Origin: an uncultured Acidobacteriota bacterium
Lineage (GTDB): Bacteria; Acidobacteriota; UBA6911
Reading direction: 5' to 3'
Assembly (NCBI GenBank): GCA_963809485.1
Contig: CAWEJX010000020.1
Coordinates: forward strand, 544,001 to 608,000
Length of the DNA stretch: 64,000 nucleotides
The notes below the pieces were generated by a model, which searched no databases, was not told where the DNA came from, and worked only from the letters and a program-made list of their open reading frames with translations. A program made the translations under genes and the position numbers. Positions 7,309 to 61,901 of this stretch are shown piece by piece (the stretch's first letter is position 1; each line of letters opens with the position of its first letter).

Positions 7309-7710
7309 AGTCAGGTACCTCCGGCAAAGCCGGAGGCTTGAAAGATTTGAACCGCTCAAAGCGGTTAGAGGAGTTACGCCGGTCTTGAACGCTGAATTAC
7401 GCGGGCAAAAGCCGATGAGGCGCTTCCGATCCCCGCAGGGGCCAGCGCTCCGCGCTGGACAGTTTTCTGCGGCGGCACTGTGGCAAGCGCCGTGCGGCAA
7501 GGGGATGAAGGGTATGAGAAACCGGGCGTTTGCCACAGTGCCGCCGCAGAAAACTTCATCGGAAGCGCCTCATCGGCTTTTGCTCGCCGACCCTCGCCGA
7601 ACAAATCCGCGTTTGTCAGCGCTTTTATCAGCGTTTCTCAGCGTTTCAAAATACGGAGCTGTCAAACTCTTTGAGTCCCCCGGCAGAGCCGGGGGTTTGC
7701 CAATGTAATT
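7309..7710 (+). mobile_element. Non-autonomous palindromic element (IS200/IS605-like ends), full-length copy A
   Basis: 402 bp; terminal hairpins CCTCCGGC-AAA-GCCGGAGG and CCCCCGGC-AGA-GCCGGGGG; near-identical to 37884-38285 and 43444-43845. Confidence 0.8.
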
Positions 7711-7742
7711 GTGGTGATTGCCCCTTTTTCCAGGAGGATGCA

Positions 7743-8345
7743 ATGAGCAAAGGTCTGCTTGGCTGTCTCGGAATCATCGTGATCGCAGCGATCGTTCTCG
7801 GCTTCATGGCCTACGGAACCTACAATGACCTTGTCGCCCAGCAGCAATCGGTCGACTCGCAGTGGGCCCAGGTTGAAAACGTTTACCAGCGGCGCGCGGA
7901 TTTGATCCCCAATCTTGTGGCGACCGTCAAGGGCTATGCGGCTCACGAGAGCCAGGTGTTTGAAGCGGTGACGGCCTCACGGGCCCAGGTAGGGACGATT
8001 AAGGTAACGCCCGAAATGCTCAACAACCCTGCGGAACTGCAGAAATTCGAGCAGGTGCAGTCCGGGCTGACCAGCGCGCTCTCACGCCTGATTGCCGTCG
8101 CGGAAAATTACCCGGATTTGAAGGCAAACCAGAATTTCCTCGATCTTCAAAGCCAGCTTGAAGGCACGGAAAACCGAATCACCGTGGAACGTAAACGATT
8201 CAACGAGGTGGCCCAGACCTACAACACCAGGGTTATGCAATTCCCGGCCAACATTTTCGCCCGGTTCTTCGGATTCCAAAAGAAGTCATACTTCCAGGCT
8301 GCGCCCGGAAGCGACCGGCCGCCAACGGTAGATTTCACCAAGTAG
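7743..8345 (+). CDS. lemA: LemA family protein
   Basis: YQRRADLIPNLV, ENYPDLKANQNF, LEGTENRI; RBS AGGAGG. Confidence 0.93.
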   Translation: MSKGLLGCLGIIVIAAIVLGFMAYGTYNDLVAQQQSVDSQWAQVENVYQRRADLIPNLVATVKGYAAHESQVFEAVTASRAQVGTIKVTPEMLNNPAELQKFEQVQSGLTSALSRLIAVAENYPDLKANQNFLDLQSQLEGTENRITVERKRFNEVAQTYNTRVMQFPANIFARFFGFQKKSYFQAAPGSDRPPTVDFTK

Positions 8346-8352
8346 GCTCACG

Positions 8353-9240
8353 ATGCTTCGATTTGCGATTGCTGCGGTATGGCTTTTTCTCCAGGTTGCC
8401 GGAGCGCAGGCGCTTGACGTCCCTAAACTCCGGGACCGGGTAACGGATCTGGCGGGAGTATTGACGCCCGATCAGATATCCAGCCTGGACACAAAGCTAA
8501 AGGAACTCGAGACAACCGATTCCACTCAGGTTGCCGTTTTGATCATCCCCAGTCTCGAAGGAGAGCCGCTGGAAGACTACTCGATGCGGGTCGCCGGCGA
8601 ATGGAAAATCGGGCAGAAAGGACGGGACAACGGCGCGATTCTCTTGATCGCCATGAAAGAGCGCCGGATCCGCATCGAGGTGGGATACGGGCTGGAACCG
8701 ACCCTGACCGACGCGCGCAGCTCGCAGATCTGGCGGAATGAAATCGTGCCGCGATTCCGCACAGGAGACTTTTATGGCGGGATCGATGCCGGAGTGACCG
8801 CGATCATCCAAACTGTGCGCGGCGTCTATCAACCGCCCCCGCAGCAATCTCGCCGTCCCTCCGGGGGCTTTTCAAACTTTCCCATCATCCTGCTGATACC
8901 GCTCTTCTGGATCCTGAGTTCCGCCGGGAAGTGGGGCGGCGCCTTGGTCGGTACGGCCGCAGGGGTGCTCCTTCCCTATACCCTGATCAGCCACAACTGG
9001 ATGCTTCTGCTTTTCGGCGGCGTGGCCGGCGGCTTCCTGGGTCTCCTTATGGGCTCGCTGATCCAGGCCGCAGCCAGGTCCGGGCGCGGCGGCAGAGGGG
9101 GATCCGGGCCTTTCGGCCCGGGAGGTTTCGGAGGACCCATTACCTGGGGCGGAGGACACGGGGGAGGCTTTGGAGGCGGAGGCGGCTTTTCGGGAGGAGG
9201 CGGTGGCTTCGGAGGAGGCGGCAGCTCGGGCAGCTGGTAG
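8353..9240 (+). CDS. TPM domain (YgcG-like) membrane protein with Gly-rich tail
   Basis: RVTDLAGVL, RIEVGYGLE, C-terminal GGGFSGGGGGFGGGGSSGSW. Confidence 0.9.
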   Translation: MLRFAIAAVWLFLQVAGAQALDVPKLRDRVTDLAGVLTPDQISSLDTKLKELETTDSTQVAVLIIPSLEGEPLEDYSMRVAGEWKIGQKGRDNGAILLIAMKERRIRIEVGYGLEPTLTDARSSQIWRNEIVPRFRTGDFYGGIDAGVTAIIQTVRGVYQPPPQQSRRPSGGFSNFPIILLIPLFWILSSAGKWGGALVGTAAGVLLPYTLISHNWMLLLFGGVAGGFLGLLMGSLIQAAARSGRGGRGGSGPFGPGGFGGPITWGGGHGGGFGGGGGFSGGGGGFGGGGSSGSW

Positions 9241-9299
9241 CGCTTCAAGCCCGAAGCAAAGCCGATCGAGATCAACCCCATCCGGCGAATGAGTAAACC

Positions 9300-9938
9300 A
9301 TGAGACCACTAAGCGACGAAGATAACAGGCGGATTGAGGAAGCCGTCAGGAAGGCGGAGGCTAAAACTTCGGGGGAGATTGTCGTTACGGTCGCCGATGC
9401 CTCGGGCAATTACGGTTCGGCCACTCTCCAGGGTGCGCTGATTGGTATGGCAATTGTAACAGCCGTCTTTCTGATGCTTCCCCTCCCGCACACGATGACC
9501 ACCCTCCTGTGGACGGAATTCATTTCCTTTGCCGTTTTTTATACGATCCTTCCCTATTTGCCCTGGCGGCGCTGGCTTATCTCAAAGCGCAAACTTGACG
9601 CCCGTGTCCGCGAAGCCGCTCTTATGCAGTTTTACTCCAGCGGGCTTTACCGAACCCGCGAATCCAACGGCGTGGAAATATACCTTTCGCAATTTGAGAG
9701 AGAAGTCGTGGTTATCGGCGACCGCGGAATCCATGAAAAAATGGGAGTTCAGCACTGGCATCAGGTACGGGACCTCATAATCAGCGGAATAAAGCAAGGA
9801 AACCTGTGCGGCGGCATCTGCGCGGCCGTTGAAAGCTGCGGGGAAGCGCTCGCAAAGCATTTCCCGCACAGGGCGGATGATGTCAATGAGCTGCCCGACA
9901 ACGTGATCCCGCGGCCCGTGAAGCCGGAAGCGTTGTAG
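9300..9938 (+). CDS. TPM domain-containing membrane protein
   Basis: AEAKTSGEIV, RTRESNGV, NELPD; typical lemA operon partner. Confidence 0.85.
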   Translation: MRPLSDEDNRRIEEAVRKAEAKTSGEIVVTVADASGNYGSATLQGALIGMAIVTAVFLMLPLPHTMTTLLWTEFISFAVFYTILPYLPWRRWLISKRKLDARVREAALMQFYSSGLYRTRESNGVEIYLSQFEREVVVIGDRGIHEKMGVQHWHQVRDLIISGIKQGNLCGGICAAVESCGEALAKHFPHRADDVNELPDNVIPRPVKPEAL

Positions 9939-9944
9939 CAGTGT

Positions 9945-9997
9945 TTAGGGATTAGGGATTAGGGATTAGGGATTAGGGATTAGGGATTAGGGATTAG
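9945..9997 (+). repeat. (TTAGGGA)7 + TTAG perfect heptamer array
   Basis: Seven perfect units read directly. Confidence 0.97.
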
Positions 9998-10053
9998 ATG
10001 GCTAAGCCCAATCCGCGGCATAGAGATGCGATTCGGGATGAAGCGGGGACGAT

Positions 10054-10284
10054 TCAGTTCTTGCAGCCGGCGCAGCTCGATGCATGGCATGAGGAGCAAC
10101 CGGAAGACATTGTATGCGTACTTCCGTCGCTGGAACGGGAGACACCGTTGAAGCTGGAAAACAATCTTTCGATTTCGCTGGACTGGCAGTCAGGGCAGCT
10201 TATCCCGTTTTCGGAAGATGCTCCAAACACGAGCTTTTCAAATTCAGAGTCGCATTTTAAGCACTTAAACTCAAATATAGGCAT
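10054..10284 (-). CDS. FmdB family zinc-ribbon protein
   Basis: MPIFEFKCLKC...CPDCQS, Cys-rich tail CSSC...CAGC. Confidence 0.88.
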   Translation of the reverse strand: MPIFEFKCLKCDSEFEKLVFGASSENGISCPDCQSSEIERLFSSFNGVSRSSDGSTHTMSSGCSSCHASSCAGCKN

Positions 10285-10433
10285 ATCACCCTCATCACCG
10301 TTTCATCTCACACCTTATCGTAGCCAATCTGGTCCAAGACTTCAAGCCGCCTGAAATTTCAATCGCCTATAACTAACTTGAACCAGATATTATCGAGACT
10401 TTTTCCGGCGATTGCCGCGCTGCTTTGCAGGAT

Positions 10434-10491
10434 CTAATCCCTAATTCCTAATCACTAATCACTTCTCGTTAACCGCTAACCACTAACCGCT
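10434..10491 (+). repeat. Degenerate CTAAYCN heptamer array, reverse-complement counterpart of 9945-9997
   Basis: CTAATCC CTAATTC CTAATCA CTAATCA CTTCTCG TTAACCG CTAACCA CTAACCG in 7-nt phase. Confidence 0.85.
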
Positions 10492-10492
10492 G

Positions 10493-11947
10493 CTATGGAT
10501 CAGAACCGGCGATTTCCCTGAAACTGATCTGCGACGCAGGAATCAGGCCTATCGCCATTCTAACCGCGTCCCTATTGGCCGTGATCCGGGAACTCCCGCC
10601 TATGGAAAGCCCCGGCACCCCGAAAGAGATTTCCTCGCCGGTACCGGAAAGATTTGCCAGAAATATTGCTCCGGTTATGCCCGGACCCGTTCCAGCAGCA
10701 GACAATCGGCCCGTACCGAGTACCATAATCAGGCCGCAATAACTGAAGGGTCCCGAATAGGACAAATCGCCTGTCACGACAAGCAGTCCTCCGCCGGAAA
10801 AACTGCCGCTAATATTCAGGTTGCCGTTCACCACGATCATCCTGGGATCCTGACCCGGAGCCTGGACCGGTTTGGCCGGATCATAGGCACCGGCATACGG
10901 GGTCATTCCTTCCATCCAGTCCTGGTCTCCGCCGTAAAAGTCATCGGCCATGCGGGGAGCTTTGTTGCGAACGAAATCCCACAGGTAACCCGGATCCAGC
11001 AGAAGACGTTCATCCGGCCCGGACAAAATCCTACCCGTTATGTCCTGAACGGACGGATTCGCCAGACCTCCCCCCGAAATCATCTTCCCTTCCCCCGCCG
11101 CGTCGCGGATAAACTGTTCCGGAAGCACCAAATCCGTCTGATTCGGGTCTATAACCCCAATGCCGGGAAACAGCCCTCCTGAAATTTCGCAGGTTTCCTC
11201 AAAATGTGCATCAATGCTGTTGCCCTCGACAACAAGCGCGGGGCCGAGATCAAAAGTTGAACGACGCCTGAACCGCGCTTCAAAGACAACCGCGGAGTTG
11301 CGTCGAAGAGACGTCTCTGTCATCTCCGATATGGTTCTGGCGATACCGATCGACCGTACAATGACCATTCCGTCACCGTCAAAAAAAGGATTGTCATCGG
11401 GGTCAAGGGCCAACTCGGAGGCTTCCCGGTTGTTATCCGCAACTTTTACAAAATAGCGGGACGTTGTTGTCGTACCTCCGCCATAAGAAGCCGTCTCGCT
11501 CTGGCTTATACCCGTCAAAGGGATCAGAACGGTACCGCTGGTCCCTTCGTAGAAGCCCGTGTTCAGGATGCCGTCATCGGAGAGTTCGGACAGATCACTC
11601 GCGGGATCGGAGATATCGAGAGAAAGGGCCAAAGAAACCGGAAGCGGATTGCGAAAGGCGAAGCTCCTGGCTTCCTCCCAGGATGCGGCGCTGACGGCAT
11701 GAGCGCCGTCCGGCCCCTTCAAAAGATCGTTGAAATCCAGGCCCCGCAGCAACGCACGAGCATGATTTAAACCCGCCAGCGCGGCATAGGTTGCCTTCAG
11801 ACGGCCTTCGTGATTATGGCTGATTTTCAAACCGGTTGTGGCCTCAAGAGTCATGTAAAGCCCGAGGAGCGAAAAGACAGACAGGGCTATCAGCGTTACC
11901 AGCAATGCAATTCCCTTTTCATCGGTGAAAATGCGAGGCTTTGACAT
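10493..11947 (-). CDS. PilX-like type IV pilus minor pilin / assembly protein
   Basis: EKGIALLVTLIAL prepilin-like N-terminus, ATYAALAGL, C-terminal G-rich beta repeats. Confidence 0.7.
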   Translation of the reverse strand: MSKPRIFTDEKGIALLVTLIALSVFSLLGLYMTLEATTGLKISHNHEGRLKATYAALAGLNHARALLRGLDFNDLLKGPDGAHAVSAASWEEARSFAFRNPLPVSLALSLDISDPASDLSELSDDGILNTGFYEGTSGTVLIPLTGISQSETASYGGGTTTTSRYFVKVADNNREASELALDPDDNPFFDGDGMVIVRSIGIARTISEMTETSLRRNSAVVFEARFRRRSTFDLGPALVVEGNSIDAHFEETCEISGGLFPGIGVIDPNQTDLVLPEQFIRDAAGEGKMISGGGLANPSVQDITGRILSGPDERLLLDPGYLWDFVRNKAPRMADDFYGGDQDWMEGMTPYAGAYDPAKPVQAPGQDPRMIVVNGNLNISGSFSGGGLLVVTGDLSYSGPFSYCGLIMVLGTGRLSAAGTGPGITGAIFLANLSGTGEEISFGVPGLSIGGSSRITANRDAVRMAIGLIPASQISFREIAGSDP

Positions 11948-12281
11948 GGGAACCCAATTCACACAACTATTGTTTCGCGATCCCCGAAAATATTTCACAT
12001 TATTTCATCTATCCAATGGATTCCGCGATCTGGATGGAAACTCCGGGGACAGCTCCGGAACCGCTGGTCTGCCGATAAAGGCGCTGGCAAACGCCGACTA
12101 TGGCCGTAAGGTCCCGCAGAATTATTTATTTGCTCCGAAGGGCTTCATTCATTAACAAGGAAATCCCGGATACACAGTACGGATTGCGTGTTTTGGAGAC
12201 TTATGATAAGCATACTGCTTTGACTCCCACATGCCGCGTTCCCGTCAGTGCCCGGAGTCTGGGAAATGGAGATACGCAAAG

Positions 12282-13079
12282 ATGCAGAATTGGCTTAGGA
12301 GGCGCTCTCTCGGATCGGAGTATCCACGCTCGGATCGATGCTTTTTCCCCTCTGGATCCTGCATGGCGTTGACTGCCGCCTCGGCGATTCTCATCCTGGT
12401 GCTTCAATCCGCCTGCATCCTGCCCTGGCGCCACAAGAAGCCCAAAGCCGCGCCTGCTCCTCCGCCGGTTGTGCAGGTGGCGTTTTTGCCCTTCAATGTG
12501 GCTGCTGCCGACAATGAACTGCGCTGGGTGGCCATGGCGGCGCCGGTCATGCTGGCGAAAGTGAGTGAACGTGCCCGGGAAATCGAGGTGATCCCTCTCT
12601 GGCAGGCGATGCCGATTGCCCTGGATGCGGCCGGCGCATCGCGCACGCTGACGGCCGATTCAGGTGCGCAGATTGCAGGCTATCTCTCGGCCAAATGGGC
12701 AACCATTGGAGAGTTCACCCGGACCAAGTATGGGGTATCCATTGTTGGGGATTTCATCCCGGCGCAGCGGACTCAAGTCCCGTTCCGCTTTATTAAAAGA
12801 GGCAGCATGGAAACGGTCGGATCCAACGTACCTGTCGCGATCAGTCAGTTCCTTCGATACGTGGCAGCCAGGCCGCTGTTGCCGGAAGTACACAAGACAC
12901 CGGATTTCCTGTCCTTGCGAACCCTGGCGGAAGCGCTTGACCGCGAATATGGCTGGTTCGTGGAAGCCCAGCCGGGGAAAGCGGATGAAATTGTATCGGA
13001 GTTGGCAAATTCGGATGAGCGGCTTGCCCGCCTGCTCTTCAGCCCGACCCTTTATCCTGCATTAGCCAAAACAAAATGA
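12282..13079 (+). CDS. Hypothetical lipoprotein (start uncertain, 12282 or 12363)
   Basis: Hydrophobic stretch ending LQSAC lipobox-like; VAFLPF motif. Confidence 0.6.
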   Translation: MQNWLRRRSLGSEYPRSDRCFFPSGSCMALTAASAILILVLQSACILPWRHKKPKAAPAPPPVVQVAFLPFNVAAADNELRWVAMAAPVMLAKVSERAREIEVIPLWQAMPIALDAAGASRTLTADSGAQIAGYLSAKWATIGEFTRTKYGVSIVGDFIPAQRTQVPFRFIKRGSMETVGSNVPVAISQFLRYVAARPLLPEVHKTPDFLSLRTLAEALDREYGWFVEAQPGKADEIVSELANSDERLARLLFSPTLYPALAKTK

Positions 13080-13314
13080 CGAATTACGAATGACGAATTA
13101 CGAATGAAACCACACTGTTGCGGAAGTGGCATGTCTCAGGCCATCAAGATTCAAGACGTTTATAGAATTCCCCCGAGTTAATCCCGTCACTCGTTTTATC
13201 CAGAATCACGAGTAAAATGCGCGAGAAGGGAAAGCGCCGCCTCCCAGCTCTTCCCTAAATCCCATCAATTAGGTCTGTTGTAATTCGTCAATCGTCATTC
13301 GTAATTCGTAATTA
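13075..13314. repeat. Inverted pair of (AATKACG)n heptamer arrays with spacer
   Basis: AATGACG AATTACG.. at 13075-13106 and reverse-complement array at 13281-13314; both overlap stop codons of convergent genes. Confidence 0.85.
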
Positions 13315-13638
13315 CATTTCGACCCATTTTCCATGGCCTTCCCAAATGCGTAGAGTGAACGGGAAAGGTATGTGGTCTGCCAGTTTCCGCTTTATGGCCT
13401 CGCAGATGTTTTCAACCGAAGGATATTCGAGAAGGTCGTTCAGGGTTTTATGGTCGAAATAGCTCAAACCTTCCCTGATGTTTTTTTTGAGTATGGCGAA
13501 ATCCATGAGCATGCCTGACTTCTTCTCACCCTCGATCACGACCTCGATCTTGTAGGTATGTCCGTGAAGGGACCCGCACTTGTCATGCCCCGGCAGGAAA
13601 TGGGCACAGTCGATATAATCAATAACTCCCAATTTCAT
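13312..13638 (-). CDS. queD: 6-carboxytetrahydropterin synthase
   Basis: CAHFLPGHDKCGSLHGHTY, FDHKTLN, PSVENI. Confidence 0.9.
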   Translation of the reverse strand: MKLGVIDYIDCAHFLPGHDKCGSLHGHTYKIEVVIEGEKKSGMLMDFAILKKNIREGLSYFDHKTLNDLLEYPSVENICEAIKRKLADHIPFPFTLRIWEGHGKWVEM

Positions 13639-13731
13639 AGTATGCTCCCCAGGATAATCGCAATATTTGATTCTATCATGTTAAAGCGTGGAACGTTGAA
13701 ACGTTGAACGTTCAACGCTCCACGGCGGTTA

Positions 13732-13760
13732 TTGACAGAGTCTGGCGGCTTTGCTAAATT
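13732..13760 (+). promoter_or_regulatory. sigma70 promoter for tRNA-Leu-tig-clp operon
   Basis: TTGACA-N17-TAAATT with extended TG. Confidence 0.7.
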
Positions 13761-13860
13761 GCCTGTTTGATTCAGTTTGATTGCAGGCTCGCCATTGTTT
13801 TTGCCTCGCCGGCTGCGGTTAATGCCAGACACCCGGAAGCAGGATCCAAATAGGAAGACT

Positions 13861-13945
13861 GCGAAAGTGGCGGAATTGGCAGACGCGCTGGACTTAGGAT
13901 CCAGTCCCGCAAGGGGTGGGGGTTCAACTCCCCCCTTTCGCACCA
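13861..13945 (+). tRNA. tRNA-Leu(TAG)
   Basis: GCGAAAG/CTTTCGC acceptor, CTGGA-CTTAGGA-TCCAG anticodon arm, long variable arm, GGTTCAA T-loop, encoded CCA. Confidence 0.97.
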
Positions 13946-13950
13946 GACGC

Positions 13951-14088
13951 AATTACGAAATACGAATGACGAATGACGAATACAAACATACACTTCAGGC
14001 GACTGAAATAGACGGCGGAATCGACAGCAGGCGACCCCACGGCACTTTATTTTTAAATTCGGCATTCGTAATTCGTCTTTCGTCATTT
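13951..14088. repeat. Inverted pair of (AATKACG)n heptamer arrays between tRNA-Leu and tig
   Basis: AATTACG AAATACG AATGACG AATGACG ... ATTCGGC ATTCGTA ATTCGTC TTTCGTC ATT. Confidence 0.85.
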
Positions 14089-14101
14089 TACAGGACAGGC
14101 G

Positions 14102-15379: not shown

Positions 15380-15391
15380 GGGTGACAAGGA

Positions 15392-15979: not shown

Positions 15980-16009
15980 GGTAGCCTACCTGTACTCCGG
16001 AGGACTCCT

Positions 16010-17260: not shown

Positions 17261-17268
17261 CTTTAAGA

Positions 17269-19665: not shown

Positions 19666-19685
19666 AGCCAAACCGCAAAACCCCG

Positions 19686-21788: not shown

Positions 21789-21820
21789 GAAAGCCGCAGA
21801 TTTCGTCGATGTCAACTTCG

Positions 21821-22086
21821 TCCGGCAGAGCCGGAGGCTTGATTGTTTGCCGCTCAAAGCGGCTGGATGAACGGCACTGCCTCCAAGCGCTGACAAATGC
21901 TTGCAAGAGCCAATGAGACGCTTCCGATGCCTGAAGAGGAAACGTCTCATTGGCTCTTGCAGGACGGACGTTTCCTTTGTGATCAGCCTTCATAAGAGTT
22001 TTGTCAGTGTGGGTCAGCGTTCAATGACCCTGGAACTGCCAAACTTTGTGAGTACCCCATTAAAGCTCCGGGGGACTCCCGGTTTA
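21821..22086 (+). repeat. Diverged sibling of the palindromic MITE-like element
   Basis: TCCGGC-AGA-GCCGGAGGCTTGA..CCGCTCAAAGCGG start, internal GCAAGAGCCAATGAGACG / CGTCTCATTGGCTCTTGC stem, GGAACTGCCAAACTTTGTGAGTACCCC end. Confidence 0.7.
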
Positions 22087-23757: not shown

Positions 23758-24813
23758 ATGCCGAACAGATATCGAATGCTTGCTTTTGCGGTATTGCTGA
23801 CCCTTTTGACGTCGGCGGGAGTCACGCTGGCTCCGAAGTTGGCGGGCGGACAAGGTTCGAGTCCCTATGCCAAATATTTCGTCTGGGACTACCTCATGCA
23901 GCCCCTGACTCCGGAAATGGAAGCCAAGAGGAAGGAGGACCGGATCAAACAACAGACAACCGTGGAGGCGACCCGCCTGCTGAATATGAACACGAAGCGG
24001 ATCGAGGGAAGCCCCTATCTCGATTTTGTGTGGCTGTGGAAAGGAAACGCGAAGGGCTACAACGAAAAGCAGCATTACCATGAATTCGACGAATTTATCG
24101 GATTCATCGGCACCAAGGGCGGCCAGCAGGATCCGCAGGACCTGGGGGGAGAGATGGAGGTCTGGCTGGGCAGCGAAAAATACAGCATCACCAAGAGCTG
24201 CCTCATTTATGTGCCGAAGGGGCTCAACCACTGCCCGATCCGGTTTGTCCGGATCGACGCCCCCATACTCTTCTTTTCGGGGGCCGTCGGATCGTCCGCC
24301 ATATATAAGCCGATCATGACCGAATTCAAGACGGACAAGGCGGCCGAAAGAAACTACGCCAAATATATTTCCTATGACGTCAACTTCAGCAAAGTCTCTC
24401 CGGAAACCATGCAGAAAATGGGCGAGGCAAAGAAAAAGAGGGGCTCCACGATTCAGTCCACCCGTCTCCTGGACCTGGACAAGGTGGAAGGCGCGCCCTA
24501 CATAGATTTCGTGTGGCTGTGGAAAGGGACCGAAAAAGGCCCCAATCACCCGGAACACAGCCACGATTGGGCCGAGATATTCGGGTTCGTCGGCGCGCAA
24601 GGCCAGAAGGATTCTTACAGTCTCGGCAGCGAGATAGAACTGTACGTCGGCGGCGAAAAGAATCTCCTTACCAAAAGCTGCCTGATCTATGTGCCGCCGA
24701 ACGTCAAGCATTGCCCGATGCAGTTTAACCGTATAGACAGCCCGGTCCTTGTATTTACGATCGGGATGACCCATAAGTACACCTTGCAGGAATCCGAAAA
24801 GCAGCCGAAATAA
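23758..24813 (+). CDS. Secreted tandem cupin-like protein (paralog 1)
   Basis: Signal peptide; two internal repeats each with HxH..E and YVP...HCP cupin-like motifs. Confidence 0.75.
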   Translation: MPNRYRMLAFAVLLTLLTSAGVTLAPKLAGGQGSSPYAKYFVWDYLMQPLTPEMEAKRKEDRIKQQTTVEATRLLNMNTKRIEGSPYLDFVWLWKGNAKGYNEKQHYHEFDEFIGFIGTKGGQQDPQDLGGEMEVWLGSEKYSITKSCLIYVPKGLNHCPIRFVRIDAPILFFSGAVGSSAIYKPIMTEFKTDKAAERNYAKYISYDVNFSKVSPETMQKMGEAKKKRGSTIQSTRLLDLDKVEGAPYIDFVWLWKGTEKGPNHPEHSHDWAEIFGFVGAQGQKDSYSLGSEIELYVGGEKNLLTKSCLIYVPPNVKHCPMQFNRIDSPVLVFTIGMTHKYTLQESEKQPK

Positions 24814-29273: not shown

Positions 29274-29494
29274 ACAAATCGATTCGGTTGGAGCAGCCAG
29301 ACAGACCTCTCGCTTCATGAAACAAAATCGGATGGAAAAACCGCAGAGAGTCTATAGGCCCTATTCGAACTGGCTGTTACTGCAGCGAATGACAGCGTGA
29401 AAAGCGCGTACAGGATCAACGCAGCTTTATGATGCGCAAAAGAATCCGTGCCCCGCGCCGAAGAATGAACCCTTTCTGCAGGGAGGAACCTGAC

Positions 29495-30550
29495 ATGCAA
29501 CGAAAATATCGAAAAGCAGCATTTGTGATTTTGGTTTTACTTCTGGCGTCCGCCGGCGTGGCAGTAATTTCAAAGCAGGCAACTGGACAGGCACAGGGTC
29601 CATATGCAAAAAATTTCATATGGGACTACCAGATGCCGAAGCTGACTCCGGAACAGGAAGCGCAAAGGAAGGCGGATCGGCTGAAACAACAGACCACCGT
29701 AGAATCCACGCGCCTGCTGAATATGAATCCATCCAGGATAGAAAACGCTCCTTACATGGATTTCGTTTGGCTCTGGAAGGGAAACGCAAAAGGTTACAAT
29801 GAAAAGCAGCATTACCACGAATTTGACGAATTTATCGGGTTTATCGGCACCAAGGGAGGGCAGAAGGATCCTCACGACCTTGGCGGGGAGATGGAAGTTT
29901 GGCTGGGCGGCGAAAAATACTCGATAACCAAGGACTGCCTAATATATATACCCAAGAGAATGAACCACTGCCCCATTAGATTTGTCCGAATCGACGCCCC
30001 CATTCTTTTCTTTTCAGGAGCTCCTGGGTCTTCAGTTTCGTACAAGCCCATAATGACCGAATTTAGCGAAGCCAAAGCGGCCGAACGAAACTACGCCAAA
30101 TATATCTCCTATGATGTCGACTATAAAAAGATTTCTCCGGAAGCTCAGAAAAGATCAGCCGAGGCAAAGAAAAAGAGAAGCTCTACAATCGAGGCAATCC
30201 GCTTGTTGGATGCAGACAATGTGGAGGGCGCTCCTTATCTTGACTTTGTATGGCTGTGGAAAGGAACCGAGAAAGGTCCCAACCATCCCGAACATCGCCA
30301 TGAATGGGCCGAGATATTTGGTTTTATCGGCACCGGAGGGCAGCAGGACCCCTATAATCTGGGCAGCGAAATTGAGTTGCACGTCGGCGGCGTAAAGAAT
30401 CTTATATCCAGAAGCTGCCTCATATATATTCCGCCAAATGTTGCGCACTGCCCGATGCAATTTAACAGAATAGACAGCCCAGTGCTCACATTTACAGTCG
30501 GGGCGACCCCCAAGTACACGTTGAAAGTTTCTGAAACACAGCCAAAGTAA
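29495..30550 (+). CDS. Secreted tandem cupin-like protein (paralog 2)
   Basis: Long identical blocks with 23758-24813; signal peptide; RBS GGGAGG. Confidence 0.75.
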   Translation: MQRKYRKAAFVILVLLLASAGVAVISKQATGQAQGPYAKNFIWDYQMPKLTPEQEAQRKADRLKQQTTVESTRLLNMNPSRIENAPYMDFVWLWKGNAKGYNEKQHYHEFDEFIGFIGTKGGQKDPHDLGGEMEVWLGGEKYSITKDCLIYIPKRMNHCPIRFVRIDAPILFFSGAPGSSVSYKPIMTEFSEAKAAERNYAKYISYDVDYKKISPEAQKRSAEAKKKRSSTIEAIRLLDADNVEGAPYLDFVWLWKGTEKGPNHPEHRHEWAEIFGFIGTGGQQDPYNLGSEIELHVGGVKNLISRSCLIYIPPNVAHCPMQFNRIDSPVLTFTVGATPKYTLKVSETQPK

Positions 30551-30698: not shown

Positions 30699-30925
30699 AG
30701 TCAGGCACCTCCGGCAAAGCCGGAGGCTTGAAAGATTTGTACCGCTCAAGGCGGTTGGACTAGTTACGCCGATCTTGAACGCTGACTTACGCGGGCAAAA
30801 GCCGACCCTCGCCGAACCAATCGGCGTTTGTCAGCGCTTTTATCAGCGTTTCTCAGCGTTTCAAAATACGGAATTGTCAAACTCTTTGAGTCCCCCGGCA
30901 GAGCCGAGGGTTTACCGATGTAATT
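30699..30925 (+). mobile_element. Palindromic element, internally shortened copy C
   Basis: Both termini intact; central nested palindromes absent between GCCGA repeats. Confidence 0.8.
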
Positions 30926-32599: not shown

Positions 32600-32816
32600 A
32601 GTCAGGCACCTCCGGCTTTGCCGGAGGCTTGAAAGATTTGAACCGCTCAAAACGGTTGGAGGAGTTACGCCGGTCTTGAACGCTGACTTACGCGGGCAAA
32701 AGCCGAACAAATCGGCGTTTGTCAGCGCTTTTATCAGCGTTTCTCAGCGTTTCAAAATACGGAGCTGTCAAACTCTTTGAGTCCCCCGGCAGAGCCGGGG
32801 ATTTACCAATGTAATT
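32600..32816 (+). mobile_element. Palindromic element, shortest two-ended copy D
   Basis: Both termini; first hairpin loop TTT instead of AAA. Confidence 0.8.
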
Positions 32817-43443: not shown

Positions 43444-43845
43444 AGTCAGGTACCTCCGGCAAAGCCGGAGGCCTGTAAGATTTGAACCGCTCAAAGCGGT
43501 TGGAGAAGTTACGCCGGTCTTGAACGCTGACTTACGCGGGCAAAAGCCGATGAGGCGCTTCCGATCCCCGCAGGGGCCAGCGCTCCGCGCCGGACAGTTT
43601 TCTGGGGCGGCACTGTGGCAAGCGCCCGGTTTCTCATACCCTAAATCTCCTTGCCGCACGGCGCTTGCCACAGTGCCGCCCCAGAAAATTCCATCGGAAG
43701 CGCCTCATCGGCTTTTGCTCGCCGACCCTCGCCGAACAAATCGGCGTTTGTCAGCGCCTTTATCAGCGTTTCTCAGCGTTTTAAAATACGGAGCTGTCAA
43801 ACTTTTTAAGTCCCCCGGCAGAGCCGGAAGTTTACCAATGTAATC
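43444..43845 (+). mobile_element. Palindromic element, full-length copy H between trpC and trpF, central 33 bp inverted
   Basis: 402 bp; end overlaps trpC stop codon. Confidence 0.8.
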
Positions 43846-44683
43846 AAGCAGCCTTCCCTCGTAACCGGAGCAAAGCTTCGCCCGGGGACGAAGCCCGTAT
43901 GAGCTGTTCTCCCACAAGGAATCCGATGTAGCCGGCATCGGAAAGCTTGCGTATATCCTCCGCGCTGCGGATGCCGCTCTCGGCGACGGCCGTCACCTCC
44001 CCGGGCATATTTCGAGCCAGATCCAGGGATACATCCAGGCGGACCTCGAACGTCCGCAGGTCGCGGTTATTGACGCCAATCAGTGTGGCACCCGTATCGA
44101 GCGCCCGCTGGAGCTCCTCCCGGTTGTGGACCTCGACAAGCGCCTCCATGCCGTAGCGTTCTGCGTCCTCGCGGAGGTTGCGCAGCCCTGAAGCATCCAG
44201 CAGTGCGGCGATCAGCAGTACAGCATCCGCCCCCGCGTGGCGGGCTTCCAGGATCTGGTAGGAATCTATGATGAAGTCCTTGCGCAACAGCGGGATTCTT
44301 GTGCTCCAGCGCAAACGGGCAAGGATCTCGAGTCCGCCCTGGAAGTGCCTTACTTCGGTAACCACGGAAACGGCGGCTGCGCCGGCATCCTGGTATTCGC
44401 GAGCGATCGATTCCGGATCAAAATCCTTGCGGATCAAACCGGCCGACGGCGACGCCCGCTTGATCTCCGCAATTATGGCCGGCCTGTGCCTCGCCAGCGC
44501 CTTCCTGAAGGACCGTATCGCAGGGGCGCGGTCCAAAACGCTTTCGATGGACACGGCGGGCAGCTTCTGACGGGCAGCTATGAGTTCACGCACTTTATCA
44601 TGCATGATCTTTTCCAGGATAGTGTCCCTGAGCGGATCAGGCAGCCTGTAATCCAATGACGTTTGCAGTTTGTTCGTGTTCAT
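43844..44683 (-). CDS. trpC: Indole-3-glycerol phosphate synthase (start uncertain)
   Basis: IIAEIKRASPS, LLRKDFI, LVEVH, IGVNNRDL, AESGI. Confidence 0.96.
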   Translation of the reverse strand: MNTNKLQTSLDYRLPDPLRDTILEKIMHDKVRELIAARQKLPAVSIESVLDRAPAIRSFRKALARHRPAIIAEIKRASPSAGLIRKDFDPESIAREYQDAGAAAVSVVTEVRHFQGGLEILARLRWSTRIPLLRKDFIIDSYQILEARHAGADAVLLIAALLDASGLRNLREDAERYGMEALVEVHNREELQRALDTGATLIGVNNRDLRTFEVRLDVSLDLARNMPGEVTAVAESGIRSAEDIRKLSDAGYIGFLVGEQLIRASSPGEALLRLRGKAA

Positions 44684-44686
44684 GTT

Positions 44687-45262: not shown

Positions 45263-45276
45263 GCCACCCCCCAACG

Positions 45277-45427
45277 GAATTACGAATTACGAATTACGAA
45301 TGACGAATAGGAGCACCATTCTCTATTGGAGTTGCCATTGGATTGTCCGGGAGCTTATTGAATAAATGGAGGCCGGCCCTTTTGTCATTTAATTCGTAAT
45401 TCGTCATTCGAAATTCGATATTCATTT
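45277..45427. repeat. Inverted pair of (AATKACG)n heptamer arrays between trpE and trpG
   Basis: GAATTAC x3 GAATGAC ... AATTCGT AATTCGT CATTCGA AATTCGA; overlaps trpE stop. Confidence 0.85.
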
Positions 45428-49023: not shown

Positions 49024-49064
49024 GTTGACGTCGCACCCGGCCAAAAAGCGATCCCAGCTGAAAG

Positions 49065-52080: not shown

Positions 52081-52364
52081 GACTTCAAAATATCTATCGG
52101 ACACGAAATTTTCCACCATAATCGGCATCCGCGAGACAAAAAGCGATCCGGCTCCGCTTCATCCAATAATTGTCATCGCTCAACGGCGCATCTGTCGGCG
52201 CACCTCCGTATCACCAGATTCTGAATTTCAATAAATCGAGTATTCAAGAGAGAGCTGTCCACTCTGCCGGCGCCGGCCGAATGCTATTGACACAATGTCG
52301 GTGTTGGTTATTAATTGTCGCAATTAGTGATATTTATTATTTTTGGAAGGGAGCCCTTGATCCT

Positions 52365-53270: not shown

Positions 53271-53295
53271 GAACCTAATTCATGGAGAATCCCAC

Positions 53296-54093: not shown

Positions 54094-54097
54094 CTGC

Positions 54098-55467: not shown

Positions 55468-55476
55468 TTCGTGGCT
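55441..55476. repeat. REP-like hairpin between convergent tupC and aor
   Basis: AGCCACGAATC...GATTCGTGGCT; related to 33324-33364. Confidence 0.6.
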
Positions 55477-55485
55477 GCTTTTGCG

Positions 55486-57204: not shown

Positions 57205-57456
57205 TGGTAGTTCCTCACACTGAGTGTCGCTGACAAACATTCTCCTGCAGATACATGTGCTTGCATCTAAATCGTTATGCCGCGCCTTTGCTATATATTG
57301 GCACGGCTCCGATCTCTATCCACTATAGTCAGATCCGCTCGCTTTTGCCAGAGAAACATTAGGCTGAAATGGCGTAATTCACCCATTATTAATGACTTTC
57401 CGATGGCAAGTATCGCCTTGACGCTTCCGATGCGCACGCGGGATAATGCCCTGCTT

Positions 57457-58350
57457 ATGGCGATGAGGAAATTTGATTTTGCCGCCGTGATCGAGTCCCG
57501 GTTCCCTGGTCTGCTGGAAGAGGTCCGGAAGGTCATCCAGGAATCGGAAAGGGCCTACGAGGGGAGCGATTCAGGCCAGGAGAGTTTTCTCTGGGAACAC
57601 ACCCTGCAGGTTGCTTCCTTCGCCTGCCGCCTGGCAGAAGACCAGAATACGGATCCCCTAATCCCTATGGTCGCTGCCCTGTTCCATGATGCCGGGAAAT
57701 TTTCGGGAGGCACCTACCACAGCGATGATACGATCGAGGAGGAGGAATCCGCCCGGATAGCGGAGCGGCTCCTGGGCCGGTTCGGCATGAATGCCGCAAG
57801 TATCCGCAAAGTTCTTGCGGGATTGAGGGCCTTGTATAATGAAAAATCCAGGAGAAATTCTGTCGCCGCCATTCTTCACGACGCCGACTTCCTTTCAAAA
57901 TTCGGGGCCCTGGGGATTGCGGGTTTTTTTACCAAATCCGCGCTGCGCGGCCGGCCGCTGCGTTCCGCAGTTCTGGGATATCTCAGCAAGGAATTGACTT
58001 ACGCGGCCTGCCTTCCCCTGAATATGCACACCGCCGCGGGGCGGAAACTGGCGTTGAAGAAATCGGCGGATTCGCTGAGGTTTTTTCGTTCGCTGCTTGC
58101 GGAACTGCGCAACACCCGGATGGCCGATCTCAGCATCCGGCGCATGAGGATACCTAATCCTTCATCGGCAAACCGGTTCATAGAAATTCATTTTGTGGCT
58201 TCATCCGTCTGCACGGAATGCGGCGGAAAATGGGAGATGGCCTGGGCTACGGAGAAGGGTCTCAAATGCCAGAAACTCAATATCGACTGGGCATGCATGC
58301 ACTGCGGCGAGAAGATCGAGACATCCTTCTGCCTGCCGGAAATCAAATAG
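57457..58350 (+). CDS. HD-domain protein with C-terminal zinc-ribbon-like Cys cluster
   Basis: WEHT..ALFHDAGK..LHDAD; CTEC..C..CMHC..FC. Confidence 0.8.
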   Translation: MAMRKFDFAAVIESRFPGLLEEVRKVIQESERAYEGSDSGQESFLWEHTLQVASFACRLAEDQNTDPLIPMVAALFHDAGKFSGGTYHSDDTIEEEESARIAERLLGRFGMNAASIRKVLAGLRALYNEKSRRNSVAAILHDADFLSKFGALGIAGFFTKSALRGRPLRSAVLGYLSKELTYAACLPLNMHTAAGRKLALKKSADSLRFFRSLLAELRNTRMADLSIRRMRIPNPSSANRFIEIHFVASSVCTECGGKWEMAWATEKGLKCQKLNIDWACMHCGEKIETSFCLPEIK

Positions 58351-58353
58351 CAA

Positions 58354-58572
58354 AATTTCGAATGACGAATGACGAATGACGAATTTCGAATTGGAACAAA
58401 CACTTGAGATAATGGCAGATGAAGGACCATGGGCGGATTAGGGATTCGCCGATGTGTTCGTAGGATAGCTGCTTGACCATACGGACCTAATCATGAGATG
58501 GCATCAAAGGAACGATTAAAACGGTGTCCAGATCAGCAATTCGTCATTCGTCATTCGTCATTCGTACTTCGA
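58354..58572. repeat. Inverted pair of (AATGACG)n heptamer arrays between HD gene and moeA
   Basis: AATTTCG (AATGACG)3 AATTTCG ... (ATTCGTC)3 ATTCGTA CTTCGA. Confidence 0.88.
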
Positions 58573-58586
58573 GAAGGGGTGGCTCC

Positions 58587-59822
58587 TTGGCGGAATTTCT
58601 TCACGTGATCACGGCCGATCAGTTTATAGAGTTGCTGGGCCGTTTTGGCCGGCTCTCACCCGAAAGAGTGCCGCTGGACGCATCGCTTGGCCGGATCCTG
58701 TCCGAGGATGTCCTCGCCTGTGAAGATCTGCCCGAAGGGGCTCGTTCCACCGTGGATGGTTACGCCGTGCGGGCTGAAGACACATTCGGGGCTTCCGACG
58801 CGATCCCGGCGTTTTTGGAGGTGGCGGCTGCGGTCCGGATGGGGACTCTGCCGGATTTTGCCATTCATCCCGGCCAGGCGGCCCAGATCCCGACAGGCGG
58901 ATTCCTGCCCGAAGGGACCGATGCCGTTGTTATGGTGGAATATACCAACCCGGCAGGCCCTCAGAGCATCGAGGTGACTCGTCCTGTAACGGTCAGAACG
59001 AATGTGCTGGGAAAGGGCGAGGATGCCAAATCAGGGCAAACCCTGCTTTCCGCCGGCAAGAAGATGCGCCCTCAGGAAATCGGCTTTCTCGCAGCCATAG
59101 GAATCACGAATCTTGCAGTGTACCGGCGGCCGCGCATTGCGGTGATTTCCTCGGGTGACGAGGTGATCCCCATAGATCACAGACCGCATCCGGGCCAGAT
59201 ACGTGATGCCAATGGTCATGCAATTTCCGCGCTGGCGCGAGCAGCCGGCGCCGAGCCGGTGCTGTTTGACATTGTTCCGGATAACGCGGCCATGCTCCGC
59301 GATACCCTTGAAAAAGGCCTGAAGCAGGCAGATGCCGTAGCCATTTCAGGCGGCAGCTCCGTCGGGACAAGGGATCTGATGGTGGAAGTCGTTTCCTCTT
59401 TGCCCGACGTCGAGATTCTAGCGCATGGCGTGGCCATACGCCCCGGGAAACCGACGCTGCTTGCCGAACAGAAGGGCAAGGCGATCTTTGGCCTGCCCGG
59501 GCACCCGGTTTCGGCCCTGGTTGTCGCCCAGGCATTCTTTGAGCCCTTCCTGCAATACCTGCAGGGTGGCGAGCTGGGCAAGGGCCCGCTGGGGCATCGG
59601 GTTCAGGCAGTGTTGGCCACCTCCATCCATTCCACCATAGGGCTGGAGGAGTTTGTCCGCGTCCGCCTGGAAGAACAGGCGGATGGCATGTTCGCGGCGC
59701 ATCCGGTTTTCGGTAAATCCGGCATGCTTTCCACGATGGTCAAAGCGAATGGCATAATCCTGATTCCCATGAACGTCGAGGGCTTTTCCAGGGGGGAAAT
59801 TGTTCAAGCTGTTCTGCTATAG
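58587..59822 (+). CDS. moeA: Molybdopterin molybdo/tungstotransferase MoeA
   Basis: STVDGYAV, ISSGDE, SGGSSVG, IRPGKPT, LPGHPVS. Confidence 0.93.
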   Translation: MAEFLHVITADQFIELLGRFGRLSPERVPLDASLGRILSEDVLACEDLPEGARSTVDGYAVRAEDTFGASDAIPAFLEVAAAVRMGTLPDFAIHPGQAAQIPTGGFLPEGTDAVVMVEYTNPAGPQSIEVTRPVTVRTNVLGKGEDAKSGQTLLSAGKKMRPQEIGFLAAIGITNLAVYRRPRIAVISSGDEVIPIDHRPHPGQIRDANGHAISALARAAGAEPVLFDIVPDNAAMLRDTLEKGLKQADAVAISGGSSVGTRDLMVEVVSSLPDVEILAHGVAIRPGKPTLLAEQKGKAIFGLPGHPVSALVVAQAFFEPFLQYLQGGELGKGPLGHRVQAVLATSIHSTIGLEEFVRVRLEEQADGMFAAHPVFGKSGMLSTMVKANGIILIPMNVEGFSRGEIVQAVLL

Positions 59823-59849
59823 TTATTCATTCAAGCAGCCTGATGTTGA

Positions 59850-61781
59850 ATGGCCATGACAACCAGAAGACAGACTTACCGCAACCTGAAACCTCTCCAC
59901 GAAGCCCAGGAGATATTCTTCTCCCGTTTCAGAAATCTGCTCATGGAACCGGAAACCGTCCCGGTACGCCAGGCGCTGGGCCGCCTCCTGGTGGGCCCGG
60001 TCAAAGCTGCGAGATCGGTCCCCGCGTACAATGCCTCCGCGGTGGACGGCATGGCGGTCCGCGCGTCGGCAACTTTCTCGGCATTTCCCGAAACCCCGGT
60101 ATTGCTGTCTGCAGGCAGGGATGCCATCCAGGTCAATACGGGCGATCCACTCCCCGAGCAGACCGACGCAGTCGTAATGATCGAGAAAGTTGAGCTTTCG
60201 GATGACCGCTGCGAAATTCGTGAGTCGGTATATCCCTGGCAGAATGTTCGCAAGACAGGGGAGGATATCGTCAAAGGCGAAATCCTTCTCCCGGCCTATC
60301 ACCGCATACGTTCCTACGACCAGGGAGCGCTGCTCGCTGCAGGGATCCAGTCCGTCGAGGTATTTCGAAAACCCCGTGTGCTTATCATTCCTACGGGAGA
60401 TGAGATCGTGCCGCCGGAAGAAATCCGAGATCCTGTGCCGCCCGGAACCATCCTTGAAGTCAATGGCCAGGTCCTGGCGTCCATGGTTTCGGAATGCGGC
60501 GCAGAAGCGACCTTGGCCAAACCTGTACCCGATGACCTTGAAACGATCAAGCATGCGGTGACCTCCGGATATGCTGCCGGTTACGACGTCATCCTGACCA
60601 TTGCCGGTTCCTCCGCGGGTTCTGAAGATTTTACCCCGACGGCGTTTTCACAACTGGGTGAGTTGCTCGTCCACGGAGTCACCGTGATGCCCGGCAAACC
60701 AACCCTGCTGGCCGCAGTTCAGAACCGGCCGGCTGTGGGCATACCGGGGTATCCGGTTTCCGCCGTAATATCTTTCCGCGAATTTGTGCAGCCGCTGCTT
60801 TATCAAATGCAGGGATCGCCGGCTCCCGATCCCGAAAAAATCGACGCCTATATGGGCCGGAAGCTGCCGTCCAAACCCGGGCTTGAGGAGCATGTTCGCG
60901 TCATTCTGGGCAAGGTCCGGGATCGTGTCGTCGCCATTCCCCTTGCCGGCGGTGCGGGAATGATGACTTCACTCGTGCGCGCCGACGGCATTCTGAGGGT
61001 CACCCCGGAAATCAGCGGCTATTCCGAAGGCGAGCCGGTATCTGTGGAGCTGCTTACGCCCAGAAAGGCGCTCAACAGCAGGCTTCTGGCCATCGGTTCC
61101 CACGACCTCACGGTGGACCTGTTGGGCAGCCTGATCAAGGAAAAGTCCGAAGGCAGGATTACAATTTCATCCAGTAATGTCGGGAGCATGGGTGGGCTGC
61201 TCGCAATCGAGCGGGGAATCGCTCATCTGGCGGGCTCTCATTTACTGGATACGGAAACCGGCGACTACAATCGATCCTATTTAAAGCTTTATGTGAAGCA
61301 CACTCCCGTCAAACTGGTGACACTCGTCCACCGCTGGCAGGGATTCATGATCGCCAAGGGGAATCCCAAGGGGATTCAGGGTATCAGGGATCTCCTCCGG
61401 CCCGATATCTCTTTTATTAACCGTCAGGCGGGCTCCGGGACGCGCATCCTTCTCGATTACGAATTGCAGAAAGCAGCAATGGATTCGTCCGCCATCGCCG
61501 GATACAGGAGCGAGGAGTACACGCACATGAGCGTGGCGATGGCCGTTACATCGGGGCGGGCGGACGTCGGGCTCGGGATCCTGGCGGCCGCGAAGGCTTT
61601 GGATCTCGACTTCATTCCCGTCTCTCGCGAGCGCTACGATCTGGTCATTCCCGCGGACCTGTTTCAGGATGAACGCATCTCGCTGCTGCTGGAAATTGTC
61701 CGCTCCTCCGGCTTCATGGAGCAGGTGGTGGCGCTGGGCGGGTATGAAGTGGAGGAAACGGGCAAAATCCAGCCGCTGTAA
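59850..61781 (+). CDS. moeA: MoeA fused to C-terminal molybdate-binding PBP domain
   Basis: SAVDGMAV, PTGDE, AGSSAGSED, then GSHD, NRQAGSGTR. Confidence 0.9.
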   Translation: MAMTTRRQTYRNLKPLHEAQEIFFSRFRNLLMEPETVPVRQALGRLLVGPVKAARSVPAYNASAVDGMAVRASATFSAFPETPVLLSAGRDAIQVNTGDPLPEQTDAVVMIEKVELSDDRCEIRESVYPWQNVRKTGEDIVKGEILLPAYHRIRSYDQGALLAAGIQSVEVFRKPRVLIIPTGDEIVPPEEIRDPVPPGTILEVNGQVLASMVSECGAEATLAKPVPDDLETIKHAVTSGYAAGYDVILTIAGSSAGSEDFTPTAFSQLGELLVHGVTVMPGKPTLLAAVQNRPAVGIPGYPVSAVISFREFVQPLLYQMQGSPAPDPEKIDAYMGRKLPSKPGLEEHVRVILGKVRDRVVAIPLAGGAGMMTSLVRADGILRVTPEISGYSEGEPVSVELLTPRKALNSRLLAIGSHDLTVDLLGSLIKEKSEGRITISSSNVGSMGGLLAIERGIAHLAGSHLLDTETGDYNRSYLKLYVKHTPVKLVTLVHRWQGFMIAKGNPKGIQGIRDLLRPDISFINRQAGSGTRILLDYELQKAAMDSSAIAGYRSEEYTHMSVAMAVTSGRADVGLGILAAAKALDLDFIPVSRERYDLVIPADLFQDERISLLLEIVRSSGFMEQVVALGGYEVEETGKIQPL

Positions 61782-61805
61782 AAAGCACTCCTTGAGGATC
61801 AGTTC

Positions 61806-61901
61806 GTCAGCGCTTTTATCAGCGTTTCTCAGCGTTTCAAAATACGGAGCGGTCAAACTCTTTGAGTCCCCCGGCAGAGCCGGGGGTTTACCATTGTAAT
61901 T
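61806..61901 (+). mobile_element. Palindromic element, one-ended fragment I
   Basis: GTCAGCGCTTTTATCAGCG...CCCCCGGCAGAGCCGGGGGTTTACCATTGTAATT. Confidence 0.8.

Follow-up and report, generated by a model that had tools for sequence, protein, structure and literature searches.

The window analyzed here is a stretch of 64,000 nucleotides (nt) from an uncultured Acidobacteriota bacterium of the UBA6911 lineage (GCA_963809485.1, contig CAWEJX010000020.1, positions 544,001 to 608,000). Between its genes lie copies of a short element with IS200-like ends and a nested hairpin of three layers inside, called below layer 1, layer 2 (P2), and layer 3 (P3). The element is a well-preserved palindrome-associated transposable element (PATE), ordinary in kind. 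Every defining feature of such elements that could be tested was found. An earlier note on this DNA had reported seven copies, and all seven are there: three long, three collapsed, and one left-end fragment. Remnants of an older sister family accompany them. Comparisons were made with the reference genome (G000), which is 6.04 Mb in 21 contigs with an assembly contamination of 7.3%, and with a sister genome (G006) that is about 90% identical to it, 1.56 of 5.3 Mb being compared; the two assemblies are 96% and 98% complete. Two independent short-read metagenome runs, X1 and X3, contain strains about 96% identical to the reference genome. The copies in the window are as follows.

4775..4880 (approximate), minus strand: older-family remnant, an eroded left end and four layer-1 units
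7310..7707, minus strand: full-length PATE copy, 398 nt; X1 and X3 contigs skip exactly these 398 nt (7308 to 7707), a precise empty site
21811..22086, minus strand: older sister-family copy, about 74% alike; eroded ends, layer 1, no P3
30700..30922, minus strand: collapsed copy, 223 nt, with a 175-nt deletion at a 5-nt microhomology
32601..32813, minus strand: collapsed copy, 213 nt, with a 185-nt deletion and the right-hairpin loop flipped; site empty in the sister genome
37887..38284, plus strand: full-length copy, 398 nt; site empty in the sister genome
40344..40584, minus strand: collapsed copy, 241 nt, right end damaged, preceded by TGAT
43445..43842, minus strand: full-length copy, innermost loop inverted; site empty in the sister genome
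61806..61898, minus strand: left-end fragment with target TAAT, hairpin, and four layer-1 units

The three long copies are 94 to 98% alike. The TGAT target of the copy at 43445 to 43842 starts with the stop codon of a trpC-like gene (IGPS, 43844 to 44683), and the site in the sister genome that is orthologous to the copy at 30700 to 30922 is occupied by a differently collapsed copy. The parts of the unit are given for the copy at 7310 to 7707, for which the top (active) strand is the minus strand, from its left end to its right end.

7708..7711, minus strand: left cleavage/target tetranucleotide, outside the element; TAAT or TGAT in the family, CAAT here, TAAT in the empty site of the sister genome
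7696..7699, minus strand: left guide, 5' of the left hairpin foot; TAAA in the family, CAAA in this copy
7677..7695, minus strand: left subterminal hairpin, common to intact IS200 tnpA elements
7586..7645, minus strand: first part of layer 1, with four ACGCTGA-like units and two reverse ones from the resident 4+4 hairpin repeat
7558..7587: one arm of layer 2 (P2)
7461..7555: layer 3 (P3), arms 7461 to 7491 and 7525 to 7555 with an invertible loop between them
7432..7459: a pair of small hairpins separating P3 from the other P2 arm
7401..7430: other arm of layer 2 (P2)
7385..7405, minus strand: last two reverse units of layer 1, separated from the rest by layer 2
7350..7366, minus strand: small hairpin kept from the parent IS200, where it lies in the 3' untranslated end; also in L131, L143, L149, and L161
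7337..7340, minus strand: right guide, CAAG
7318..7336, minus strand: right subterminal hairpin
7310..7313, minus strand: right cleavage site TGAC, with which the element ends

Each end does carry a hairpin with a loop of 3 nt, as the earlier note had described. The sharp boundaries it had drawn hold in that the edges are conserved, but its unit exceeded the true one by 4 nt: what was inserted measures 398 nt (7310 to 7707), and the letters at its left boundary are part of the target, outside the element. The concentric palindromes it had proposed likewise stand in part. The arms at 7401 to 7430 and 7558 to 7587 and those at 7461 to 7491 and 7525 to 7555 are each 97% complementary, but the outer layer is a split 4+4 array of ACGCTGA-like units rather than one arm pair. 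The folding z score was -13.2 for the RNA of the plus strand and -16.1 for the DNA of the minus strand, and none of 100 shuffled sequences was as stable.

Family size, target, and parent element

BLASTN of the unit against the reference genome, which the earlier note had proposed, gave 354 family loci. Searches specific to each end found 304 left ends and 285 right ends, with 254 paired. The 252 pairs with both ends less than 600 nt apart, which are the copies counted below, total 75,013 nt, or 1.24% of the genome, and are mostly 171 to 460 nt long. In keeping with the claim that copies are intergenic, 0 of 252 lay inside a gene positioned by a simple gene caller, with which a gene interrupted by a copy would escape calling. 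In 23 of the 252 copies, the TAA or TGA of the target doubles as the upstream gene's stop codon, and a REP-like preference for convergent gene pairs is weak at most (60/252 copies versus 643/3556 gaps). Metagenome contigs cross the junctions, with a summed depth of about 10^3 to 10^4 on the element versus 5 to 25 on its flanks.

On the top strand, TAAT marks a sharp onset of conservation, which runs through TGAC and a preferred T behind it. Among 153 left ends with clean boundaries, the target was TAAT in 101, TGAT in 27, and something else in 25. The IS608 target TTAC that had been suggested for this element is therefore not its target: TAAT or TGAT is present in 128 of the 153 left ends and in the empty sites, and the TTAC letters straddle the boundary. 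For 36 of the 252 copies, both flanks were orthologous in the sister genome; 27 of these sites were empty there, 4 were occupied, and 5 were unclassified. At 17 of the 27 empty sites, the length exactly fits insertion without duplication (398 nt for long copies), and the target tetranucleotide is retained where not diverged. At most sites one base (T) fits either side of the insertion; the copy at C21:178587 resolves this. Empty sites, which the earlier note had proposed to look for in related genomes, were thus found in the sister genome and in X1 and X3, and its report of no terminal inverted repeats and no target site duplication agrees with them and with the ends themselves, which differ and form no end-to-end inverted pair. 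Of five loci scored as occupied in the reciprocal comparison, one, C8:24819, is not an element and was dropped.

The left-end pattern was found at 41 loci in other genomes, several of which are elements of 628 to 634 nt with an intact TnpA of 143 to 152 amino acids (aa) in which HUH and YxxxQ are visible. Intact tnpA, the same right end, and an upstream TAAT or TGAT occur together in L149, L168, L169, L138, L133, and L143, and T[AG]AT lies 5 to 8 nt before the left-end motif in 34 of the 41 loci. Each end of the family is 88 to 94% identical over 48 to 58 nt to that of intact tnpA elements such as L149 and L143, and in the same genus the same ends enclose a Y1_Tnp open reading frame (ORF) (L008). 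Nine of the left-end loci in other genomes are gene-less derivatives of 209 to 409 nt. A tnpA bracketed by the same hairpins, which the earlier note had named as a check, thus exists in intact tnpA-only IS200 elements of other genomes, and its description of a recently spread non-autonomous IS200/IS605 family is upheld, with an autonomous partner type having the same ends.

None of the four Y1_Tnp hits in the reference genome lies inside a family copy. One has a stop codon and another left stem, one is truncated, and two are not IS200-like by our reading and are bracketed by other repeats or longer. The closest hit is 50% identical to the TnpA of L149; it has a stop codon, no right end, and a different left stem, and its guide and target are the same as those of the PATE family. 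Because one PATE copy, at C7:755140, carries the left stem of this dead element as a chimeric end, the dead element is a possible former mobilizer. A search found no TnpB in the reference genome (control positive in 8/14). Four left ends of a second IS200 type with the same guide and target and another stem, the one seen in the PATE copy at C7:755140, lie at C6:298401 and C8:428890 and on C16 and C20.

In IS608, as described in PMC3201880, each cleavage site pairs with a tetranucleotide on the 5' side of a hairpin foot. The first cleavage-site base pairs with the second guide base and the second with the first, leaving the third base free. Since the pair given there for IS608 is AAAG/TTAC, the fourth bases pair with each other. 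By this code guide TAAA predicts TAnT and guide CAAG predicts TGnC, and both match the observed TAAT and TGAC. The older sister family has the guide TAAT or CAAT and the target TAAA or TGAA; at position 4 of guide and target, A occurs with T in 151 of 161 cases in the main family and T with A in 9 of 11 in the older one.

The top strand was the locally G-rich strand at 253 of the 304 left ends (p = 2e-33) and at 250 of 304 by third-codon skew. Over eight choices of counting window and skew, the bias ranged from 225 to 253 of 304, and genes are split about evenly between the strands. The G-rich strand is the lagging-strand template in the usual meaning of GC skew. Assuming that meaning, the strand bias fits targeting of the lagging-strand template. 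IS608 is described as targeting the lagging-strand template and stalled forks (PMC5027513).

Interior of the element and fate of its copies

The strict layer-1 motif occurs at 390 places in the reference genome and at none in two shuffled genomes, and 187 of the 390 matches have no family end within 450 nt; of these, 21 show an eroded left end and 72 have reverse units. Layer-1 arms also bracket the single GxxExxY (PF13366) gene of the reference genome, a small, nuclease-like gene at C7:765123-765437. In relatives, 23 of 30 GxxExxY loci, which are part of those listed and are kin rather than independent, exceed the 95th percentile of 400 control genes for inverted flanks; the sister genome gave no GxxExxY match. 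Layer 1 is a resident repeat, the gene-less form of the arms that bracket GxxExxY. Since this repeat also stands alone and brackets that gene, the element probably acquired it as cargo. A sister form of ten paired copies has the same ends with the plain 4+4 hairpin between them. In the long form, P2 is placed between the second and third reverse units of layer 1. The P2 of the older family differs in sequence; its loop is short in the copy at 21811 to 22086, and it is often collapsed. Free-standing 4+4 ACGCTGA hairpins with an AT-rich spacer were seen at L171 (C7:765010-765600) and at about 166 other places; they are dense in C7:716-784 kb and C8:614-671 kb, and about five units form a tandem array at C8:627.6-628.3 kb.

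The inner layers were sought outside the element. In the reference genome, 0 of 304 P3 hits and 3 of 325 P2 hits lay away from element ends, at least two of the latter in eroded copies; the layer-3 motif had no occurrence outside the family in that genome, the P2 pattern had none in viral contigs, and just 2 of the 30 genus genomes had the PATE interior. An IS6-like origin of layer 3, raised by a resemblance to an IS6-family MITE, was rejected, with no hits to PF13610 (control 5/14) and no free copies. The earlier suggestion of successive insertion of REP-like units thus survives in the captured outer layer, but neither P2 nor P3 turned up as an element of its own. That these two were added stepwise inside layer 1 is mildly favored. 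Other PATEs of the same IS200 have unrelated palindromic interiors in 3 of 9 cases and in L017, and plain interiors in the rest. Independent gene-less derivatives in other genomes with unrelated palindromic repeats inside are L144, L153, L163, L017, and L010. A literature search on nested small repeats found nothing.

Long copies make up 104 of the 252, and 148 lack the core. The main short classes lack 161, 175, 185, 195, or 145 nt, with microhomologies of 3 to 5 nt at the breaks. These short copies arose by recurrent collapse in place, because the 161- and 175-nt deletion classes are each present in all three haplotypes, copies do not cluster by class (nearest neighbor in its own class for 5 versus 6.5 expected in the 161-nt class and 2 versus 3.0 in the 175-nt class), and sites shared by the reference and sister genomes carry different deletion junctions. 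A supposed 103-nt deletion class was discarded as a different interior rather than a deletion. Among long A copies, 71 of 76 have the inner loop forward, whereas 26 of 28 long B copies have it inverted.

Change rates were lowest in the P2 and P3 arms (0.6% and 1.1%) versus 2.5% in the loop; copying from arm to arm would explain the low values without an RNA function. In 73 long forward copies, rates were 1.7% in the small interior hairpins, 2.9% in the unpaired interior, 4.5% in the right guide and hairpin, and 7.9% in the left guide and hairpin, so that the left end is 2.7-fold more mutated than the unpaired interior (p = 4e-18). Both ends are intact in 11 of the 252 copies, and there are 161 distinct left alleles. 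Since excision without TnpB is described as scarless and in excess of integration (PMC10055086), a natural reading of this end decay is survival of crippled copies and loss of excisable ones.

Several other features of the window were noted. ATGACGA-type heptamer repeats form inverted sets between genes at 13054 to 13313, 13944 to 14007, 45271 to 45422, and 58340 to 58572; the second set directly follows a tRNA gene (Rfam RF00005) at 13861 to 13942. AGGGATT-type arms (9936 to 10495) surround an ORF of 118 aa (9998 to 10354) with no Pfam match. Two paralogous cupin-domain genes, at 23758 to 24813 and 29429 to 30550, are 70 to 79% alike in DNA, each has an internal duplication, and they flank a TonB-dependent receptor gene.

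Mechanism and alternative explanations

The reading that we favor, and hold to be very probably right as a whole, is that of an IS200 derivative moved in trans that captured cargo, spread in a burst, and then collapsed. In this reading, the PATE is a transposase-less derivative of a tnpA-only IS200 that kept both ends and inserts after TAAT or TGAT. A cognate Y1 TnpA, no longer intact in the assembly, probably acted on it in trans and moved it as a single-stranded circle. One contig of run X4 (depth 5) contains the letters of a right-end/left-end junction, for which a circle and a tandem dimer look alike; the reference genome contains no such junction. By analogy with IS608, both hairpins would be bound by TnpA while on the template of the lagging strand. 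Target TAAT would be paired to guide TAAA and the terminal TGAC to guide CAAG; once peeled out, the top strand would be pasted in behind a new TRAT. Cargo has replaced the tnpA gene. Its outer layer is the resident 4+4 ACGCTGA hairpin, inside which P2 and P3 would have been added. The 398-nt composite would have been the master of a burst of about 250 to 300 insertions. After insertion, the long hairpin collapses by slippage between repeats of 4 to 5 nt at its base, and its arms were likely homogenized by arm-to-arm copying. Copies with a mutated left end are likely the ones to persist, since intact ones can be excised without a scar.

A number of observations weigh against this account. No intact cognate tnpA exists among the four Y1 hits of the reference genome, the sister-genome counterpart of the closest Y1 gene is frameshifted, with no intact cognate tnpA there, and a search of metagenome contigs with one exact pattern found no autonomous element with the exact left end. 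At guide position 1, the main family shows marginal covariation (p = 0.052), and the strand bias rests on a weak skew, read without a mapped origin. Testable sites are few (36/252, 5 of them unclassifiable), empty sites fit insertion here and scarless excision there equally, and polymorphism of the element in close metagenome strains was seen at the 7310 site only. The excess of change at the left end could come from damage to single-stranded DNA or from shared descent; the changes are mostly C>T, and some alleles recur 12 to 16 times. At one shared site, the reference genome has a collapsed long-type copy (C20:631656) and the sister genome a plain 4+4 copy (L126:18025). Interiors are thus exchangeable, apparently by conversion from one copy to another or by repeated insertion, which weakens the case for stepwise addition of P2 and P3. 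The order of the layers could also be otherwise, with the plain 4+4 form derived.

A variant of the same account holds that the nested hairpin is selected cargo, its stem of about 190 nt bringing the ends near each other on the template of the lagging strand or stalling the fork and so raising transposition, and therefore that the deletion-prone long form was the one that spread. In keeping with it, long copies are the largest class (104/252) and are nearest each other in 45 cases versus 20.9 expected, the common collapsed forms have no sign of spread of their own, L144, L153, L163, and L017 carry unrelated palindromic interiors with z scores of -3.8 to -7.9, and IS608 is reported to target stalled forks (PMC5027513). 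However, six of the nine short derivatives have interiors no more structured than shuffled sequences (z > -2), a coding interior reached -6.4 as well, and spread is seen for the plain 4+4 form, too (10 copies, 5 of them with the nearest neighbor in their own class versus 0.4 expected). A single burst from one long master would leave the same pattern with no benefit from the hairpin, and we regard selection on the cargo as rather unlikely. A functional structured RNA in the interior, such as an omega-RNA-like scaffold or a small regulatory RNA merely carried by IS200 ends, is far less probable still. The fold is very stable, mutations are rarer in the P2 and P3 arms than in the loop (double changes 2/2698 and 7/2688), PATEs are described as often encoding omega-RNAs (PMC10055086), and contigs of the RNA run X20 (share 0.06) cover the element. 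Those contigs give neither strand nor ends, though, and the library may hold DNA. No Rfam family reached the gathering level, only generic miRNA-hairpin models far below their cutoffs; no TnpB was found in the reference genome, and an IscB search there had a silent control. Furthermore, 148 of the 252 copies (55% or more) lost the core, the loop is inverted in a whole subfamily (26/28), which argues for arm exchange at the DNA level, and the interior is confined to 2 of 30 genus genomes. The structured RNA of the earlier note is not supported as the function of the cargo.

The numerous, intergenic copies might also recall a REPIN that a resident RAYT mobilizes, or a repeat that owes its spread to the GxxExxY protein, layer 1 being the repeat that flanks the GxxExxY gene. 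An intact Y1 gene encoding 153 aa does exist (L002, C15:225627-225971), with many palindromic repeats of its own around it, RAYT/REP-like. But those repeats are unrelated to the element (no BLAST hit), and the element has asymmetric ends, 84 to 94% identical to true IS200 ends, rather than inverted doublets, precise boundaries, IS200-like guide/target pairing, and a strong strand bias, so this explanation is largely refuted and very improbable. Repeats of the L002 type also lie beside L027 in the sister genome. That the copies are an assembly artefact, which the earlier note had considered as grounds for refutation, is practically negligible as an explanation in spite of the draft state and contamination of the reference genome. 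The copies differ from each other, with 5 differences in the closest pair, the family occurs at shared sites in the sister genome, and independent runs contain high depth, junction-crossing contigs, and empty sites. Near-identical stretches on pairs of contigs (C2:8714/C16:3445, C7:306630/C11:6840, and C2:3182/C5:4608) were also seen and fit contamination or strain duplication.

Relation to known elements and wider meaning

The PATEs described from Haloquadratum walsbyi (PMC3119063) are alike in having no terminal inverted repeats, no target duplication, and near-terminal palindromes of IS200/IS605 type. They too are too short for a transposase, have strain-specific insertions and repeat-mediated core deletions, contain small palindromic repeats nested inside, and spread though the tnpA copies are pseudogenes. 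That source counts 177 to 194 PATEs of 6 families, versus one family of about 250 to 300 copies here. Unlike the PATEs it describes, the parent here is a tnpA-only IS200, and the nested repeat is interior and was amplified with the element, whereas in H. walsbyi it lies in the terminal palindromes and was proposed as an inactivator. PATEs have also been reported from cyanobacteria and Salmonella (PMC4853749).

Compared with IS608 and ISDra2 as described in PMC3201880, the guide tetranucleotides 5' of the hairpin feet pair with the cleavage sites in the same way, the left site is outside and the right site inside the element, and T1 and A3 occur in both sites. The orientation bias with replication is likewise shared (PMC5027513). 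Unlike IS608 (TTAC, TCAA), the element has TAAT or TGAT as its target and TGAC as its right site, and no tnpA or tnpB. The PATE-like ISGst elements of Geobacillus stearothermophilus, according to PMC10055086, are also gene-less, predicted to be moved in trans, and naturally covarying in guide and target, with excision far exceeding integration in the absence of TnpB. Unlike that described system, no TnpB was found here, there is no omega-RNA evidence, and copies are about five times as many. REPIN/RAYT systems (PMC3116915, PMC3337134) resemble the family in high copy number, intergenic position, a long hairpin, and a Y1-type enzyme, and differ from it in that the ends here are asymmetric IS200 ends instead of an inverted REP doublet and no domesticated transposase has these ends.

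A fuller history can be put forward tentatively, as a set of steps that would all have to hold and that together seem doubtful. The gene-less hairpin of an undescribed GxxExxY-nuclease repeat system would have been captured between IS200 ends, grown into a 190-nt fold-back that improves the element as a single-strand substrate, and driven a burst of 300 copies without TnpB; the survivors would record selection for left-end loss, and independent PATEs of the same IS200 in other genomes would reflect repeated capture involving the palindromic repeats of their own hosts.

The roughly 250 insertions form a clean natural data set on the target and on the guide code with its compensatory switch. The strand bias is a marker of replication direction that could orient the contigs of this draft genome. 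With the family one can test how an IS200 derivative that lacks TnpB persists under scarless excision, through end-mutated survivors, and its cargo is linked to the uncharacterized GxxExxY repeat system. If it is true that the fold-back raises transposition, it would also provide a design rule for the cargo of single-strand transposons.

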